Part shown: in pieces, positions 1,726 through 13,894 of the stretch
Layout: every line of letters starts with the position of its first letter
Position numbering within the stretch: position 1 is the stretch's first letter
Virus record (IMG/VR): IMGVR_UViG_3300048598_000523
Coordinates: 1-40,938 of that record
DNA length: 40,938 nt
Strand: one strand, 5' to 3'
Source: a virus
Taxonomy: Duplodnaviria; Caudoviricetes
Program-made: the position numbers and the translations under genes
Notes under the pieces: model-generated
The model's input: the letters and a program-made list of their open reading frames with translations, nothing else
What the model was told of the DNA's origin: nothing
The model's database searches: none

Positions 1726-2202
1726 TCAGACCACCTTCTCTGCTTCGACCGCCGCAACAGCTTCGACCTTCGCGGCATCAGCAGCCACCATGGCGTCGGC
1801 GATTTCCGGCGTGATGTCCTTGTCGGCTACCGCCACCAGCGCGACCGGCTTGGTCGCGGTATAGCGCAGCTTCTCGTCGAAATAGCCCATCAGTGAGATC
1901 GCCAACGGGATGAGATTGATCCCGAAGTGGACAAAGGGCTGATACTTTTCCGGCACGAAAGGCATGAGCGGCGTGAGGTCGATCGAGCCGATTTGCGTCA
2001 GCAGCGTCAGCACGGCGCCGATAACGATCTTCAACCGCGCGAACAGAATCGTTTCCGACTTCTTGAACAGCAGGAGCTCGATCGGCTCGACCCACGCGAA
2101 GAAGCCCCGCGCCCACGGCTTTGCCTTCAGCCACTCGCGGCCCTGCAGGGCATACCAGAGCAACAGCCCGGCAAGGATGGCCAGAATAAGCAGGATCTTC
2201 AT
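1726..2202 (-). CDS. Multi-pass membrane protein (holin/antiholin-like)
   Basis: Start MKILLIL at 2202 overlaps the endolysin stop (ATGA); about 3 TM segments. Confidence 0.65.
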   Translation of the reverse strand: MKILLILAILAGLLLWYALQGREWLKAKPWARGFFAWVEPIELLLFKKSETILFARLKIVIGAVLTLLTQIGSIDLTPLMPFVPEKYQPFVHFGINLIPLAISLMGYFDEKLRYTATKPVALVAVADKDITPEIADAMVAADAAKVEAVAAVEAEKVV

Positions 2203-2822
2203 GACCGCACCTTCTTGATAAGGATTACGACGGCGACGGCGATGCCGCCCGCGATGAAGGCGACCAGGCCGATCTCGGACCAGGTCCAGCCCTGTTGCGC
2301 AGCGACGGCTGCCGTGCCGCCGCCGGCGCTCGCCGCCACCACAACCGTGGCAGCGGCATTCTTGACGGTGCTCGCCGTCGGCACACCGGAGAAAACCCGC
2401 CGGCGCGCCTCGACGAATTCCGCGTCGGTTGCTGGATAGGGCTTGCCTGCTTCGTGCCATGCCTGTGCCTTGAGGAATGCGATGCCTTTGCTCGACCGCC
2501 AGAACTCGTCATTCATGATGGTGTCGCGGGTCATGCCCGGCACTCGCTCGAGCACGAACCTGATATAGCTTTCGACGCTGTTGCCGCCGGACCAGATGAA
2601 GATCGCGTCGGAGAACTTCTTGTTGCGATAGTTCTTCGAGGTTCGCCACAAATCGAGTTGCGCGCAGATGCCCTGCACGAAGGTCGGGAACACAGCGATG
2701 TTGTTGCCCTGCCCCTTGCCATCGTTCAGCACAACGGCCTTCTTTTGCGCCCCCCATTTGATGGTGAGGGCGCTGCCCCACATAGCGCCGGGGTTTTTGT
2801 AACGAATAGACGCAGGCTCCAT
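2199..2822 (-). CDS. Putative endolysin (lysozyme-like, RxxNPG family) with C-terminal TM
   Basis: IRYKNPGAM...AVFPTFVQGI...AIFIWSGGNSVESY...QAWHEAG resembles RNNNPGN-type phage lysozyme-fold proteins; first gene of the lysis cassette; GGAG RBS. Confidence 0.65.
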   Translation of the reverse strand: MEPASIRYKNPGAMWGSALTIKWGAQKKAVVLNDGKGQGNNIAVFPTFVQGICAQLDLWRTSKNYRNKKFSDAIFIWSGGNSVESYIRFVLERVPGMTRDTIMNDEFWRSSKGIAFLKAQAWHEAGKPYPATDAEFVEARRRVFSGVPTASTVKNAAATVVVAASAGGGTAAVAAQQGWTWSEIGLVAFIAGGIAVAVVILIKKVRS

Positions 2823-2862: not shown

Positions 2863-2890
2863 TTCGGGGGAACTTTTGGTGTGCTAGAAA
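2862..2890 (+). promoter_or_regulatory. Candidate sigma70 promoter for the structured RNA and ORF 3095-3340
   Basis: TTTCGG-17 nt-TAGAAA, with TG-C before the -10 box; the predicted start (~2897) coincides with the first hairpin. Confidence 0.3.
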
Positions 2891-2896
2891 CTTCAC

Positions 2897-3090
2897 TGTG
2901 AGAGCGGCTTGAATCCCTGCTCTCACATTCGACGGTGGCTTGGGAGGCACGGCCCTTATGCCGGGAGACTCACGGATAAACCCCTAGAACAGCGCGCCGG
3001 CTCGGTCGGCGCGTGGGCGAAGCAGTGGGGATCAGCTTCCCAAGTCGCTGATGATTCAATCTCCCGGCACCAGCCGGGCGACTTGGGAGC
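2897..3090 (+). ncRNA. Structured cis-regulatory RNA with two alternative folds (candidate translational switch)
   Basis: Pairings: 2897-2905/2919-2927; 2933-2948/3035-3050 (16 bp, 4 G-U); 2959-2968/3060-3069 (10 bp); 2909-2915/3053-3059; 2993-3013 hairpin; competing 3038-3048/3078-3088 (11 bp) covering the SD. Confidence 0.65.
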
Positions 3091-3094
3091 AACA

Positions 3095-3340
3095 ATGAAA
3101 AATTCAGAGCGCGCGACACGACTCCTCGCCCTTGTCAGCAAGGTAAGCGGAGAGCTTCCCGAGCGGGAACCGGTAGCGCCGGTTGAACTGCGCGAACAGA
3201 TGTTCGCTGCCGCCGGAAAATCCTACGCCCTGATCGAGCGGGAATTGTTCGAGCACCTGAACGCCCTGCTCCGCAGTGACGGCAGCGTAATGCGTCACGC
3301 CACCAACTCGGCGGAGCGGATCAGCAACTTATCCACCTGA
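3095..3340 (+). CDS. Hypothetical 81-aa protein (MKNSERATRLL...), antisense to the late operon
   Basis: GGGAG SD at 3085-3089 before ATG 3095, A-rich start codons, helical composition; 3' end overlaps the convergent gene at 3295. Confidence 0.5.
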   Translation: MKNSERATRLLALVSKVSGELPEREPVAPVELREQMFAAAGKSYALIERELFEHLNALLRSDGSVMRHATNSAERISNLST

Positions 3341-3681
3341 AGGCTTGAAAGCCCGAGGCTCGCGATCATCGCCTGAGTGAGCGGGTCCGTCCGCTTTACC
3401 TCCACCGCCAGATCCCATTCTTCCTGAATATCCGGATCAGCCGCGATCGCGGCCTTCGCCGCGCCCCACAGATCAATCTCTTTCAGGGCGCGCATCAATC
3501 CAAGCCTTGTTGCGGAAGCCGGTACAGGCTCAGGCAGCGGCGCGCATGGCAGAGGTTCACCGCCCGCAGCGAGCCACTCGTCATATTCCCGCCTGTCGCG
3601 ATTCAGGGGATCATTCGGGATCGTCACCATATCGGTCAGCCGAAGCACTTCGGATGCCGTCGTAAGCTGATATTCCGCCAT
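3295..3681 (-). CDS. Tail fibre assembly-like protein
   Basis: IPNDPLNRDRREYDEWLAAGGEP motif typical of phage tail assembly chaperones; coupled to the fibre gene (TGATG). Confidence 0.75.
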   Translation of the reverse strand: MAEYQLTTASEVLRLTDMVTIPNDPLNRDRREYDEWLAAGGEPLPCAPLPEPVPASATRLGLMRALKEIDLWGAAKAAIAADPDIQEEWDLAVEVKRTDPLTQAMIASLGLSSLQVDKLLIRSAELVA

Positions 3682-5741
3682 CACAGCCTCGCATCAAAAA
3701 GGAAACTCGTCCCGCTCGCATTCGTAATCACGAAATATCTCGTGTTCGCAGCGGTTACGACCCAGATTGCCTGCGAATAATCAGCAGAGCTTTGGAACCC
3801 GGGCGTTGCGCTGTTGAGGTTCGAAACAGTCGGCGTGCCGGAAGAACTGGCAGATGGCGTCGCCCTCATTGAAGGGCTTAGAGGCAGGTTGAGTGCAACA
3901 TTTGCCGAAACCGTATTTGTGTATCCGTCAATCGCAAGAGCGCTAGGGGCCAGCGCGATCTTTTGATAGTATCGCTTGCAGAGATACAATTCTTCCTGAT
4001 AGCTCCGCGCCTCAAACGCCGAAGCTACAAGCGAGCGCTTCAGATCGACATTGCCAATATCCAGCGTGACGTTCTGCGCCTGCGTCGAATCCGTCCAGAA
4101 GAATACAGCCAGATTTGTCATCGAGCCGCTGATGGTGCCGCTTAGCGCGACCGAAGCCAGCGTGTTGGCGGTAAGCGCGACCGAACCTGTCGCAACAATG
4201 GTCGTCGTTGTGGACGTAAAGAATTGACCGGCGGTGAATGTTGTATTCGTCCAGCTATTGACGATGTCTTTCGTGATCGTGTCGGCCGTTCCGGCCCATT
4301 CGACGATCGCATAGCGAAGTGTCATCGAGGCGGACATGCGCACGCGCGCCGTCAAAAAGACCGACTGCCCGCGCAGATCGATGCTGTTGACGCTTTCAAG
4401 CCACTGGATAAGCCCGAACCGCTGCACTGACGCATTTGCCTGCGTCAACCGCATCATGTACGGCGTGCCATTCTCGACATTGGTCAGCGCCGACGGCGTG
4501 ATCGGATTCGATTGTGTGAGCGCAATCCATTGATCGAACCCCGTATAGGCACCGTCTGCCGTCGAGGCAAGACCGGCCTGAGCGATCATCCCCGAGGGGT
4601 TGATGATGCGGCTACGTGATGGAGCTAGCGCCGACTTCAAATTCGACCACGGCAGTTTTTTCAAGGCATTTGATGCCGCCGAATCTACCAACGGAATCTC
4701 GTCGGCGTCGTCCGGCACCGCTTTGCTCGCCGCGGCATGGGTCGAGGCTGCGACGTCGCCCGTGACTTCCGAGAATACGATGGCCGTCGTACCCAGCGTG
4801 CCGCCCTTGTCGGACGTGCAGCGCCAGAGCGTATCGTGCTTCGCGGTGCCCTCCATGACGGAGAAGTAGCGGCCCGGATGATCGTTATAGGCCGCGAAGG
4901 CCGTGGCGCGGGACGCCGCGCCGGATGCGGCTACAACATAGACGCCGTTCTCGGCCGGCGCGGTCTGGCCCGTCAAAAGAACCAGGTCATTCGTCGCCAG
5001 CGTGACAGCATCAAGGCTATCGCCGTTCTCGAGCGCGGTCGCGATCGCGACGTTCGATGTGGCCACGATCCGAACAATGGAAAGCGCGGATGCGCCATCG
5101 ATGCCATGGGAACCGGCCGCGCCCTTGAAATTTTTTCCGGTGTCAGCCCATGCAAGCGGGCTGCCCTGAAGCCTGAAAATATCCTGATCTGTGCTGTCGC
5201 TATCAACCCAGATGGAATTCGCCGGATAATCTGTGTCCGGCTCGGCGTCCTGAAACAGGAAAGCTGCCGCATCCACGCCATTAGCAATGGGCTCAAGTAC
5301 GCCGTTGCGCCAGCGCTTGAGGCGCAGCGTGTCTTCGTCGACGAAGACCGAGTTGTTTTGCACCAGCGACATATCGACGTCGTCGGCGGTGGAATAGACA
5401 AGGCCGGCATTCTGCTCGAAATGCGAATTGAGCCGCGCATAGATCGCCGCCTGCGTTGCGCCGTTGGCGATGGCCGGGCCATCGATAACCACATAGCTTG
5501 CAGCTACCAGCGCGTCACCGTTGTACGGCGCGACCAGCGGCAGTTCGAGATCGTCATAGATTCCACGCGGATCGACCTCGGCGACAATTCCGACCAGGAA
5601 CGGCGCGGCATCAACCGGAATCGCGATGATCTGCGACCCGGCGCGATCCCGCCCGCCCCATGCGGTGCCGGTGCCGGTGACGGTGCTTGCGCCGTTGGCT
5701 ATACTGATCGTGCCGGTCGAATATACAAAGCGCTCAGCCAT
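3681..5741 (-). CDS. Tail fibre / receptor-binding protein
   Basis: N-terminal GTISIANGASTVTGTGTAW attachment motif, LVLLTGQTAPAENGVY module, beta-rich CBM-like segment, EELYLCKRYY motif. Confidence 0.8.
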   Translation of the reverse strand: MAERFVYSTGTISIANGASTVTGTGTAWGGRDRAGSQIIAIPVDAAPFLVGIVAEVDPRGIYDDLELPLVAPYNGDALVAASYVVIDGPAIANGATQAAIYARLNSHFEQNAGLVYSTADDVDMSLVQNNSVFVDEDTLRLKRWRNGVLEPIANGVDAAAFLFQDAEPDTDYPANSIWVDSDSTDQDIFRLQGSPLAWADTGKNFKGAAGSHGIDGASALSIVRIVATSNVAIATALENGDSLDAVTLATNDLVLLTGQTAPAENGVYVVAASGAASRATAFAAYNDHPGRYFSVMEGTAKHDTLWRCTSDKGGTLGTTAIVFSEVTGDVAASTHAAASKAVPDDADEIPLVDSAASNALKKLPWSNLKSALAPSRSRIINPSGMIAQAGLASTADGAYTGFDQWIALTQSNPITPSALTNVENGTPYMMRLTQANASVQRFGLIQWLESVNSIDLRGQSVFLTARVRMSASMTLRYAIVEWAGTADTITKDIVNSWTNTTFTAGQFFTSTTTTIVATGSVALTANTLASVALSGTISGSMTNLAVFFWTDSTQAQNVTLDIGNVDLKRSLVASAFEARSYQEELYLCKRYYQKIALAPSALAIDGYTNTVSANVALNLPLSPSMRATPSASSSGTPTVSNLNSATPGFQSSADYSQAIWVVTAANTRYFVITNASGTSFLFDARL

Positions 5742-11564: not shown

Positions 11565-13894
11565 CAGCGCGACGCCAACCGGTTGCGCTGGTCAAGAGCG
11601 CGGCTGGTCTGACTGCCCGGCTTTGTCGCATTTCGCGCAGTAATGGAATCGACGAATGCATTCAGATCCGTCCCGCCGGACGCATTTTGCTTCTGCTCGA
11701 CCTGTCCCGCGCGGCTCGAATCCTCAATCAGATAGAGATTCACCGTCGATGATCGGTTGTCGTTGCCGGCGGCCATCGCCATGGAAACGTCATGCGGAAT
11801 GATCCGCGTTCCATTGGGAAGATCCATGATCTCGCCGCCGCGCTCATTGATCTCGGTAAGGCCGCCACGCCAATAGTCAGTGCCGGCGGCGTTTGCGCCG
11901 ATCGCCGTGCCGTAACCGGGGAACAGCGACGCATTGAATGCCGCATCCTGCCCGGTAAGCGCGCTACTGCCGACGCCGGGAAGACTGATGCCCAAGCCTC
12001 CCAGGCCGCCGTTCATCAGCGACTGCAGAGATTGCAACAGAGGCTGAACAATCATGATCTTGATGATCATCTGCTCGATGGCGCGCGCAAACGACGACGC
12101 CATATCGCCGAAGCCTTGCGAAACGGTCTTCGTGCCCATGGTCATATCGGTCAATCCCGACGTCAGATTGTTATCGATCGTCGACGATATCTCCCTGAAT
12201 GCATTGTTCGCCCGGATGCCCTGCGCCTCAACGCTTCCGAGCGCCATCGCGACGTCGGGGTAGATGCTCTTGAGTTGCGATGCGATCTGGACGTCCTCCT
12301 GCGACAGGAAGGCGGTATCGCGATTGAACTTGATGTCTGCGGCGATTTTGGCCTTTGCCAGCGCCTGGGCGGCCTGAGCAGCCTGCTCGGCAAGGCCGCT
12401 CATTTCGGCTTTTGCCTTCGCGGCGGCGGGCGTCAAACCATCCTTGATGCCGGCGGCAGTAAGCTGCGCGATGGCGCGCAACCGCTCCTGCTGTTCCGCC
12501 CCCTGCCCAGCACTCTCAGCGGCGGCCTTCGTCGTCTCGATGTACTTTAGAAGCGATTCCTCGGCGCGATCATAAGCATCCTTCGTCTCGGTAATCTTCT
12601 TGGCGTCTGGATTAAATGAGGTATCAGGATGGACATTGTTCAACACATTGTTGGCGTAATCCCGCGCACGCGAGATATTCGCCGGGTTCTTCATCAGATC
12701 GCCGGTCGGATTGGTTGGGTCGGGAGAACTGAGACCGGCGCCGGCCAATCGACCACCTACACCGATCACCGCGCCAACAGGGCCGGGCAACGCTGGGCCG
12801 ATCGCGGCGGCGGCTCCGGACAGATAGCGGAGCCCGGACGAAAACCACGCCGGAACAGCGGCCAACTTTTCGATCAGCTTGGCGACCCCATCGACTCCTT
12901 TCGCGATGATCTCAACGATGTCGACCCAGATACCCTTCATGGCGATGCCGCCTTGTGTCAGAAGGTCCTGAATTGGATGCCAACGCTGTGACAGAATTTT
13001 CTCGGCGGCATCGAGACGGTTCTGCAGGTCCGTGGCGCGTCCGATGTCGGCGGCCGAGACCAGTTCGGAAGCCTTTGTGCTTTCGATGGTCGCCTTCATC
13101 TTGTCGAGATAGTCGGAATCCTTCGCAAGATTGGCGGTCACCGCGTCACCTAGGAAGGTCTTGGATAAATCGAGCGCGGCGAGCCTCTGGCCGGCATCCA
13201 TCGCTTCCCTGATCGTTTTTGCAACAGCGTTGAATCGCTCTTCAGGGTCGTTAGCGGCCCTAATGTCGGCAACGCCTGAATTGCCCTTGAAATTTCCAGC
13301 CTTTACCAGCGCATCGAGCCGGTTCATCGCGTCGTTGCCGCCCAGCTTCGGCGCGAATGAATCGTTCAGCTTCTTCATCGCGGCCGTCAGTTCATCGATC
13401 GGCAATTTGGCGTCTTCCGCCGCCTTTTGAATGCGCTGAAAGAAATCTGTCGATAGGCTCGACTGGCCCGCCTTTTCGGCAAGAGCAACATGCTCGGCCA
13501 GCTTGGCGTTGCCGAGTGACCATGCCTCCGTCACCAGGCCGATGGCTGTGGTGATCAACTTGTAGATCGTATAGAGCGGGAATAGAACTCGCGCGAGCGT
13601 TCCAAGAAATGTCACTACGGTGACGCCGATTGCAACTTTCTTTGCCCAGGCTTCAGCGGCCTCGAGCGCGCTCTCCGCCAAGTGCTTCAGCCCGACCGTC
13701 AGATGACTGTGGGATTCAGCGGCGTCGCGTGCGTTGTCGTTCGCCGACCGCATGCTGTTGGAGAAATTGTCATTCGCAACCATAGCCGCCGCGGCGGCAA
13801 CCTGCGCCGCCGCCATGGCGCGCGCGTAGTCCACCGCGCCTTCGTTGTCCGACGTAACGACAAGCTCTGTGACGACTGGTGCAGCATCAGTCAT
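11564..13894 (-). CDS. Tail tape measure protein
   Basis: 776 aa, Ala-rich and helical; C-terminal NAAGT...INERGGEIMDLPNGTRIIP motif; follows the chaperone genes. Confidence 0.92.
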   Translation of the reverse strand: MTDAAPVVTELVVTSDNEGAVDYARAMAAAQVAAAAAMVANDNFSNSMRSANDNARDAAESHSHLTVGLKHLAESALEAAEAWAKKVAIGVTVVTFLGTLARVLFPLYTIYKLITTAIGLVTEAWSLGNAKLAEHVALAEKAGQSSLSTDFFQRIQKAAEDAKLPIDELTAAMKKLNDSFAPKLGGNDAMNRLDALVKAGNFKGNSGVADIRAANDPEERFNAVAKTIREAMDAGQRLAALDLSKTFLGDAVTANLAKDSDYLDKMKATIESTKASELVSAADIGRATDLQNRLDAAEKILSQRWHPIQDLLTQGGIAMKGIWVDIVEIIAKGVDGVAKLIEKLAAVPAWFSSGLRYLSGAAAAIGPALPGPVGAVIGVGGRLAGAGLSSPDPTNPTGDLMKNPANISRARDYANNVLNNVHPDTSFNPDAKKITETKDAYDRAEESLLKYIETTKAAAESAGQGAEQQERLRAIAQLTAAGIKDGLTPAAAKAKAEMSGLAEQAAQAAQALAKAKIAADIKFNRDTAFLSQEDVQIASQLKSIYPDVAMALGSVEAQGIRANNAFREISSTIDNNLTSGLTDMTMGTKTVSQGFGDMASSFARAIEQMIIKIMIVQPLLQSLQSLMNGGLGGLGISLPGVGSSALTGQDAAFNASLFPGYGTAIGANAAGTDYWRGGLTEINERGGEIMDLPNGTRIIPHDVSMAMAAGNDNRSSTVNLYLIEDSSRAGQVEQKQNASGGTDLNAFVDSITARNATKPGSQTSRALDQRNRLASR

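Follow-up and report, generated by a model that had tools for sequence, protein, structure and literature searches.

We follow the C4 antisense RNA of P1 in the order of its sites, in the a2/b2 layout and in the naming: two target sites, a1 and b1, are followed by an RNA carrying the antisense sites b' and then a', and by a further target where the next gene begins. Besides C4 of phages P1 and P7 (RF01695, with the c4-a1b1 motif), the closest described systems are the CI RNA of P4, with seqA/seqC, the IsrK RNA of Gifsy-1 (RF01394) and sRNA-Xcc1 (RF02221). PMC5499578 lists C4 and CI among the substrates of RNase P, and P4 CI is stated to act via sites upstream and downstream of itself (PMC4825925). 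sRNA-Xcc1 is reported as a discrete 88-nt RNA on the basis of Northern and RACE (PMC2996969), and is placed upstream of symE in an orientation opposed to the cassette promoter (bioRxiv 2025.06.18.660453). In the sections covered of PMC2996969, bioRxiv 2025.06.18.660453, bioRxiv 2020.03.17.996009 and PMC12189769 it is described as a free trans-acting sRNA and not as a regulator of its own gene.

Here we analyse a stretch of viral DNA of 40,938 nucleotides, referred to as the window, whose record type is provirus. Judged from its sequence, the region 2897-3097 is a conserved RNA cassette, the central 113 bases of which show complementarity both to the leader of the same RNA and to the downstream gene's ribosome-binding site (Table 1). 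The anatomy is that of C4: a' and b' are complementary to an upstream a1, presented in a hairpin loop, and to b1, and b2 lies over the ribosome-binding site. By analogy, the cassette probably acts as a C4-type antisense repressor, in which an excised RNA would repress later transcripts in trans, giving a burst of expression on entry and feedback thereafter.

Table 1. Positions in the window of the RNA cassette, its sites and the adjoining genes.
Feature	Position	Strand	Remarks
Likely -10 promoter element, TAGAAA (2885-2890) with TGTG upstream	2880..2890	+	putative start near 2897
5' leader hairpin, a1 in its loop	2897..2927	+	a1 unpaired in local fold in 27/31 copies
a1 target site	2909..2915	+	7 bp with a' (3053-3059)
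b1 target site	2933..2948	+	16 bp with 3035-3050
Predicted mature small RNA, 113 nt	2960..3072	+	from fold and covariation
Closing stem P1	2960-2968/3060-3068	+	within predicted small RNA
Long P2 arm	2969-3029	+	within predicted small RNA
P3 hairpin	3031-3052 (stem 3031-3036/3047-3052)	+	loop 3037-3046 exposes b'
b' antisense site, P3 loop 3037-3046 plus stem	3035..3050	+	partners b1 or b2
a' antisense site	3053..3059	+	partners a1
3' ACCA	3069-3072	+	end of predicted small RNA
Small hairpin 3064-3068/3073-3077	3064..3077	+	loops out ACCA, competes with P1
b2 target, overlaps SD GGGAG (3085-3089)	3078..3089	+	11-13 bp in window
Cargo ORF, 81 aa, soluble, predicted helical	3095..3340	+	homologues P0003, P0007, P0008
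Flanking late gene adjoining tail-fibre gene	3295..3684	-	3' end shares 46 nt with cargo ORF
Back-to-back neighbour of module, probable endolysin	2199..2822	-	assigned from position

The helices of both folds proposed in a preliminary description, which had used the letters alone, are present in the window. The hairpin closing the SD (OFF fold) consists of 11 Watson-Crick base pairs (3038-3048/3078-3088) together with the small hairpin at 3064-3077, which is seen in most copies, although the search patterns partly selected for it. The ON fold contains the long b1:b' helix with exactly four G-U pairs, the a1:a' pairing within the loop of the leader hairpin and a helix of 10 bp between 2959-2968 and 3060-3069; the SD and the ATG at 3095 are likewise where they had been placed. 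These pairings are real and beyond chance. Among 500 dinucleotide shuffles of 2897-3097 a helix of at least 16 bp including G-U occurred in one, and two Watson-Crick helices of at least 10 bp in none. The choice of the plus strand as the RNA strand is further supported by a folding z of -4.43 (0 of 200 shuffles as good), compared with -1.77 for the minus strand. The SD had been regarded as free in the ON fold. In the nested version of this fold it opens only partly, with an unpaired probability of 0.05-0.8 per base; complete release would require the pseudoknot helices, which are beyond ViennaRNA scoring.

PHROG matches in the window comprise integrase, CI-like repressor, primase, terminase, portal, capsid and tail genes; almost all of these genes lie on the minus strand. 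The RNA cassette lies on the plus strand, between gene 3295-3684 on the tail-fibre side and gene 2199-2822. Its description as an antisense insertion between tail and lysis genes thus holds for the plus-strand placement, while the lysis gene is deduced from its slot: gene 2199-2822 has no Pfam or PHROG family match and is a probable endolysin, and PHROG-labelled endolysins occupy the same slot in 7 other loci. Such a setting could mean that the RNA mainly targets the late transcript of the opposite strand, immediately upstream of the lysis genes, and would serve to damp leaky or early lysis expression. The late transcript would be complementary throughout, and in 13 of the 31 copies of the RNA collected below the back-to-back neighbour is an endolysin or homologous to 2199-2822. 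However, 3 of these 13 were found from the lysin side and 18 copies lie elsewhere, the gap between tail and lysis genes is a usual place of accessory-gene insertion, and the matched a and b sites would be left unexplained. We therefore consider this target highly improbable.

The promoter proposed at 2880-2890 was not called by a consensus scan of the window. At the promoter position a -35/-10 match is found in 12/31 family leaders, against 0.6 expected, the window not being among the 12. A short GC-rich hairpin is located at 2847-2865, just 5' of the proposed promoter, where no terminator was called; the hairpin is also present in L057.

Scans with patterns and BLAST raised the number of distinct RNA copies to 31; their sources are viral contigs, metagenomes and the genomes of Bradyrhizobium, Tardiphaga and Pseudolabrys. 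With 2 further, held-out copies, the set comes from alphaproteobacterial prophages, genomes and metagenomes. Excluded from the 31 are exact or near duplicates (e.g. L124, L136, L139, L150, L161, L164-169, L172, L175, L180, L182, L183, L186-188, L191, L192, L194, L195, L197-199, L205 and L217), fragments (L015, L163, L176, L181), the diverged L204 and L206, and non-homologous pattern hits. One early pattern scan had returned 65 loci with 0 homologues of the RNA, and BLAST of phage and plasmid collections gave nothing useful. A distant copy was present in 2 of the 56 viral loci obtained via gene 2199-2822. Positions 2904-3082 (2905-3039 in run X1) recur at high identity in contigs from four sequencing runs, with different upstream sequence in three and a different downstream reading frame in two. 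A model of the core (R2), with the leader and SD regions outside it, recovered the RNA from 1 of 151 order-level genomes (the centre only) and from 6 of 151 family-level genomes, 24 candidates being scored per genome.

In contigs of runs X1, X4 and X8 (2 studies) position 3039 is joined to 3097. The 57 nt missing in between (3040-3096) comprise the larger part of b', a', the P1 3' strand, the SD and the first two letters of the ATG; either the cassette of a close relative is broken, or the contigs share an artefact of assembly at the hairpin. L204 (1498-1629) and L206 (1471-1582) carry the long P2 arm in a diverged setting, with the partner of the 5' stem strand much further downstream, and are possibly an expanded variant.

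Both helix sets of the preliminary description covary across the collected homologues, which supports a plus-strand translation switch, but the two-state reading missed a third, cloverleaf-like state. In an alignment of 30 core sequences 94.6% of cells are paired and 21 of the 32 pairs change on both sides, counts in which the aligned sequences are related and the changes hence not independent events; none of 500 shuffles scored as high, and slid controls gave 34-53% paired. The closing stem P1, of 9 bp, is paired in 30/30 sequences. The 3' ACCA is found in 29/31 copies and, by a count made by hand, in 19 of the 21 copies found by patterns lacking its last two letters. Together, P1, P3 and the 3' ACCA have the shape of the C4 / sRNA-Xcc1 small RNA. 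Formation of P3 excludes both of the long helices described earlier. Sequence and covariation show three competing pairings of b': with b1, with b2 and the SD, and inside P3. A reading as tRNA or tmRNA was rejected, ARAGORN reporting 0 genes. Among the kinds of control suggested previously, antisense or processing control fits, whereas riboswitch-like control fits poorly, and the known riboswitch classes were rejected, as Rfam scans gave no aptamer-model match.

The a and b sites form matched codes. All 31 copies have an a1:a' pairing of 5-7 Watson-Crick bp and a b1:b' helix of 8-16 bp, the latter with p<=0.01 against shuffles in 28/31. The b2:b' pairing reaches p<=0.01 in 18/31 copies and is weak or absent in 13/31. 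When sites are compared across codes, the own partner is the best one for b1 in 10/10 b-codes, for b2 in 7/10 b-codes and for a1 in 6/7 a-codes. The two held-out copies, which were outside model building and one of which was found via protein alone, show new compensatory codes with a1, b1 and b2. A downstream a2 with at least 6 Watson-Crick bp was found in 0/31 copies. No other target of b' in the window is better than b1; the best ones outside the module score -26.9 (minus strand, near 12018) and -24.7. In L189 two tandem cassettes (816-931 and 1926-2039) lie between tail-fibre and endolysin genes; their a and b codes differ, as do their cargoes (an outer-membrane barrel and a 73-aa ORF), an arrangement consistent with orthogonal use.

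These data also bear on a purely cis-acting switch, in which the P2 arm binds a ligand or protein and biases b1:b' versus b':b2 with no RNA acting in trans. The P2 arm is indeed conserved and covaries, it contains a conserved A-rich internal loop and a 7-nt bulge and is ~23 nt longer than in RF02221, and the family lacks a2, which in C4 serves as the trans docking site at the SD. On the other hand, the a and b sites have diverged in matched pairs, each code private, as would suit the recognition of one molecule by another. P3 and P1 with the ACCA have the make-up of a free-standing RNA, and the relative sRNA-Xcc1 is one; the cargo genes have no common function. We thus judge a switch acting only in cis unlikely.

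In nested folding of the window transcript b1:b' (-101.1 kcal/mol) is ~5 kcal/mol more stable than b':b2 (-95.9 kcal/mol), and the cloverleaf is the least stable fold (-88.6 kcal/mol), with a probability of 0 in the full transcript. Processing of the RNA is therefore unexplained without a pseudoknot. Blocking b1 in the window yields P(b':b2)=1.0 with the SD closed, and removal of the leader at 2960 is likewise predicted to close the SD completely. Across the family the default fold contains the b1 pairing in 23/31 copies and b':b2 in 4/31. According to these models the OFF hairpin is not universal, since b2 is weak or absent in the 13 copies noted above and blocking b1 leads to b':b2 in only 14/31.

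For the C4-type repressor that we favour, the folding predictions suggest that in a new transcript b' would pair with b1, which is made first, leaving b2 free (ON), and that with b1 occupied b' would close on b2 and bury the SD (OFF). If C4 and P4 CI are a guide, the 113-nt RNA would be released from some transcripts by RNase P and 3' trimming; being stable, it would bind a1 and b1 of transcripts made later and force them OFF. As docking on a1 and b1 would throw transcripts OFF, no a2 would be needed. One transcript would supply both message and repressor. The expected outcome is a brief burst of cargo expression on entry into a cell that does not contain this RNA, followed by low, feedback-limited expression in the lysogen, and different a and b sequences would let several cassettes operate in parallel. 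The logic could also be inverted as for IsrK, which activates instead of repressing (PMC4825925): transcripts would be OFF by default in vivo and opened by the RNA in trans. The 4 copies with b':b2 as the default would suit this arrangement, but b1 is made first and wins in the 23 others mentioned, and a copy supplied in trans has its complements in b1 and b2 and not in b', so that it can only remove b1 or cover the SD. Inverted control is accordingly very hard to credit.

The ORF behind the cassette had been called an orphan. An exhaustive search of protein collections, however, gave three remote homologues that match approximately residues 1-66, i.e. the part of the cargo ORF outside the overlap of its last 46 nt with the 3' end of minus-strand gene 3295-3684. 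First searches with the 81-aa ORF, including Pfam and PHROG, were blank, as was a viral scan with the cargo alignment. Structure prediction gives two helices (pLDDT 74) with no fold match. Atlas hits are all <0.8, and PDB sequence and Foldseek searches returned no credible match. Of the 5 changes listed for a close relative, 3 are synonymous (by hand), and a 12-nt deletion keeps the frame; we take the ORF to be a real small soluble protein. Cargo homologues occur in 2/401 family genomes at three places, with the same RNA directly upstream in one (L256) and absent in two; these two (L257, L258) are short, lack a clear start and are possibly decayed copies.

Cargo start codons are mostly located 20-33 nt after the ACCA. 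Cargo ORFs could be assigned for 29 copies, with L177 and L193 having no assignable ORF; the 28 besides that of the window comprise 4 HTH proteins, 1 GDSL hydrolase, 1 outer-membrane barrel and 22 without a Pfam match. One subgroup (L131, L140, L196 and also L132) precedes a 122-aa winged-HTH gene. Three of these four copies lack b2, as do the two copies with no clear ORF, and the output in the subgroup may differ from SD occlusion. Elsewhere cassettes head or adjoin surface-modification genes, namely a 621-aa membrane protein (L004, 2200-2530), a GDSL hydrolase with a GtrB-like glycosyltransferase (L010, 724-2495) and an O-acetyltransferase (L174, 599-1777).

We found no evidence for the role in toxicity, defence or lysis timing that had been suggested for the 81-aa protein, which has no match in PADLOC, Pfam or PHROG. 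The same blank results weigh against a type I-like toxin-antitoxin or abortive-infection system, with the RNA as antitoxin and a cargo that would kill or stall the cell once the RNA disappears or is titrated. Such a role is hinted at by a hydrophobic segment in 11/29 cargo ORFs, mostly short ones, and by the location of sRNA-Xcc1 upstream of symE in Xanthomonas integron cassettes, as given in bioRxiv 2025.06.18.660453. But the cargo in the window is not hydrophobic (peak hydropathy 0.52), and HTH proteins, a GDSL hydrolase and an outer-membrane barrel are among the other cargoes. It would moreover rely on the same RNA mechanism and differ in purpose only. We regard a toxin-antitoxin function as distinctly improbable.

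A broader reading is conceivable, albeit doubtful: prophage accessory genes may bear portable, orthogonal RNA 'addresses', each cassette sensing by RNA alone the presence in the cell of an earlier cassette of the same code and firing its cargo only in naive cells or when the CCA-ended RNA is destroyed or titrated. This would amount to a gene-by-gene self/non-self system apart from the phage repressor, and sRNA-Xcc1, a widespread RNA known as a 'virulence sRNA', would be the short-arm form of the same device. The C4-type repressor that we favour would by itself extend the logic of C4/CI-type RNA immunity from lysis-lysogeny control to swappable accessory genes. The family defines an RNA subfamily missed by Rfam 15. 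With at least 10 natural b-codes and 7 a-codes and little predicted cross-talk, a mechanism in trans is easily testable, and the codes could serve as orthogonal translation switches. The role of sRNA-Xcc1 can be tested directly as code-specific repression of its own downstream gene.

The RNA had not been recognised as belonging to any family. The window indeed has no match to any Rfam model, including RF01695, RF02221 and IsrK (RF01394), but its family is a distant relative of RF02221. With RF02221 a short-arm homologue scores 38.5 bits and a long-arm homologue 33.8 bits, below the gathering cut-off of 53, which none of the homologues reached; both matches span the full model length, and the weaker one has 23 nt inserted where P2 ends in its tip. 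In the reverse search R2 matches 11 of 30 RF02221 loci, with coordinates and strand agreeing, 5 of them at E<1e-3, where E-values are rough; these loci (L219-L248) are the best match each in 30 of the 39 positive genomes among 151 Pseudomonadota genomes. A leader match to a' of at least 6 bp is present in 27/30 of them and a downstream a2 in 18/30; b1 helices of at least 7 bp occur in 29/30 but are individually weak. The matches of the leader and SD region to its own a' suggest that sRNA-Xcc1 regulates its downstream gene. We found no text linking sRNA-Xcc1 to C4 antisense and no description of an alphaproteobacterial variant in the literature searched, outside of which lie Chen et al. 2011 and file S1.DOC of PMC2864571, which may bear on this.

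The family resembles sRNA-Xcc1 in its 9-bp closing stem, three-stem junction, A-rich P2 internal loop and P3, in the unpaired a' joiner just before the 3' strand of the closing stem, and in its placement before accessory genes and against the surrounding transcription (for sRNA-Xcc1, as given in bioRxiv 2025.06.18.660453). It differs in the ~23 nt longer P2 arm, in having a2 in none of 31 copies compared with 18 of 30 RF02221 loci, in a b1 helix of 8-16 instead of 5-10 bp, and in the 3' ACCA, which only 2/30 RF02221 loci possess. The likeness to C4 and c4-a1b1 extends from the site order to a1 in a hairpin loop, the three-stem junction and similar ends of the closing stem, as drawn in the consensus diagrams of PMC2864571. 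In contrast to C4, the family has no RF01695 score, has the long P2 arm and is without a2; C4 controls icd-ant, whereas the family precedes a variable accessory gene, with no icd or antirepressor family among the 28 cargo ORFs or the window ORF, and in the window the cassette is located in the late region of a lambdoid prophage that encodes a CI-like repressor of its own. P4 CI with seqA/seqC and Gifsy-1 IsrK are like the cassette in being processed RNAs within their own leader that pair with upstream and downstream sites, and in having alternative leader conformations (PMC4825925, PMC3632133). CI, however, causes transcription termination and IsrK activates translation (PMC4825925), whereas the cassette is proposed to repress translation via the SD. 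While the family is by score not a member of RF01695 or RF02221 and its C4-like working is inferred by analogy, it is a variant of the C4 / sRNA-Xcc1 antisense cassette that has a long arm and no a2 and stands in front of variable accessory genes.
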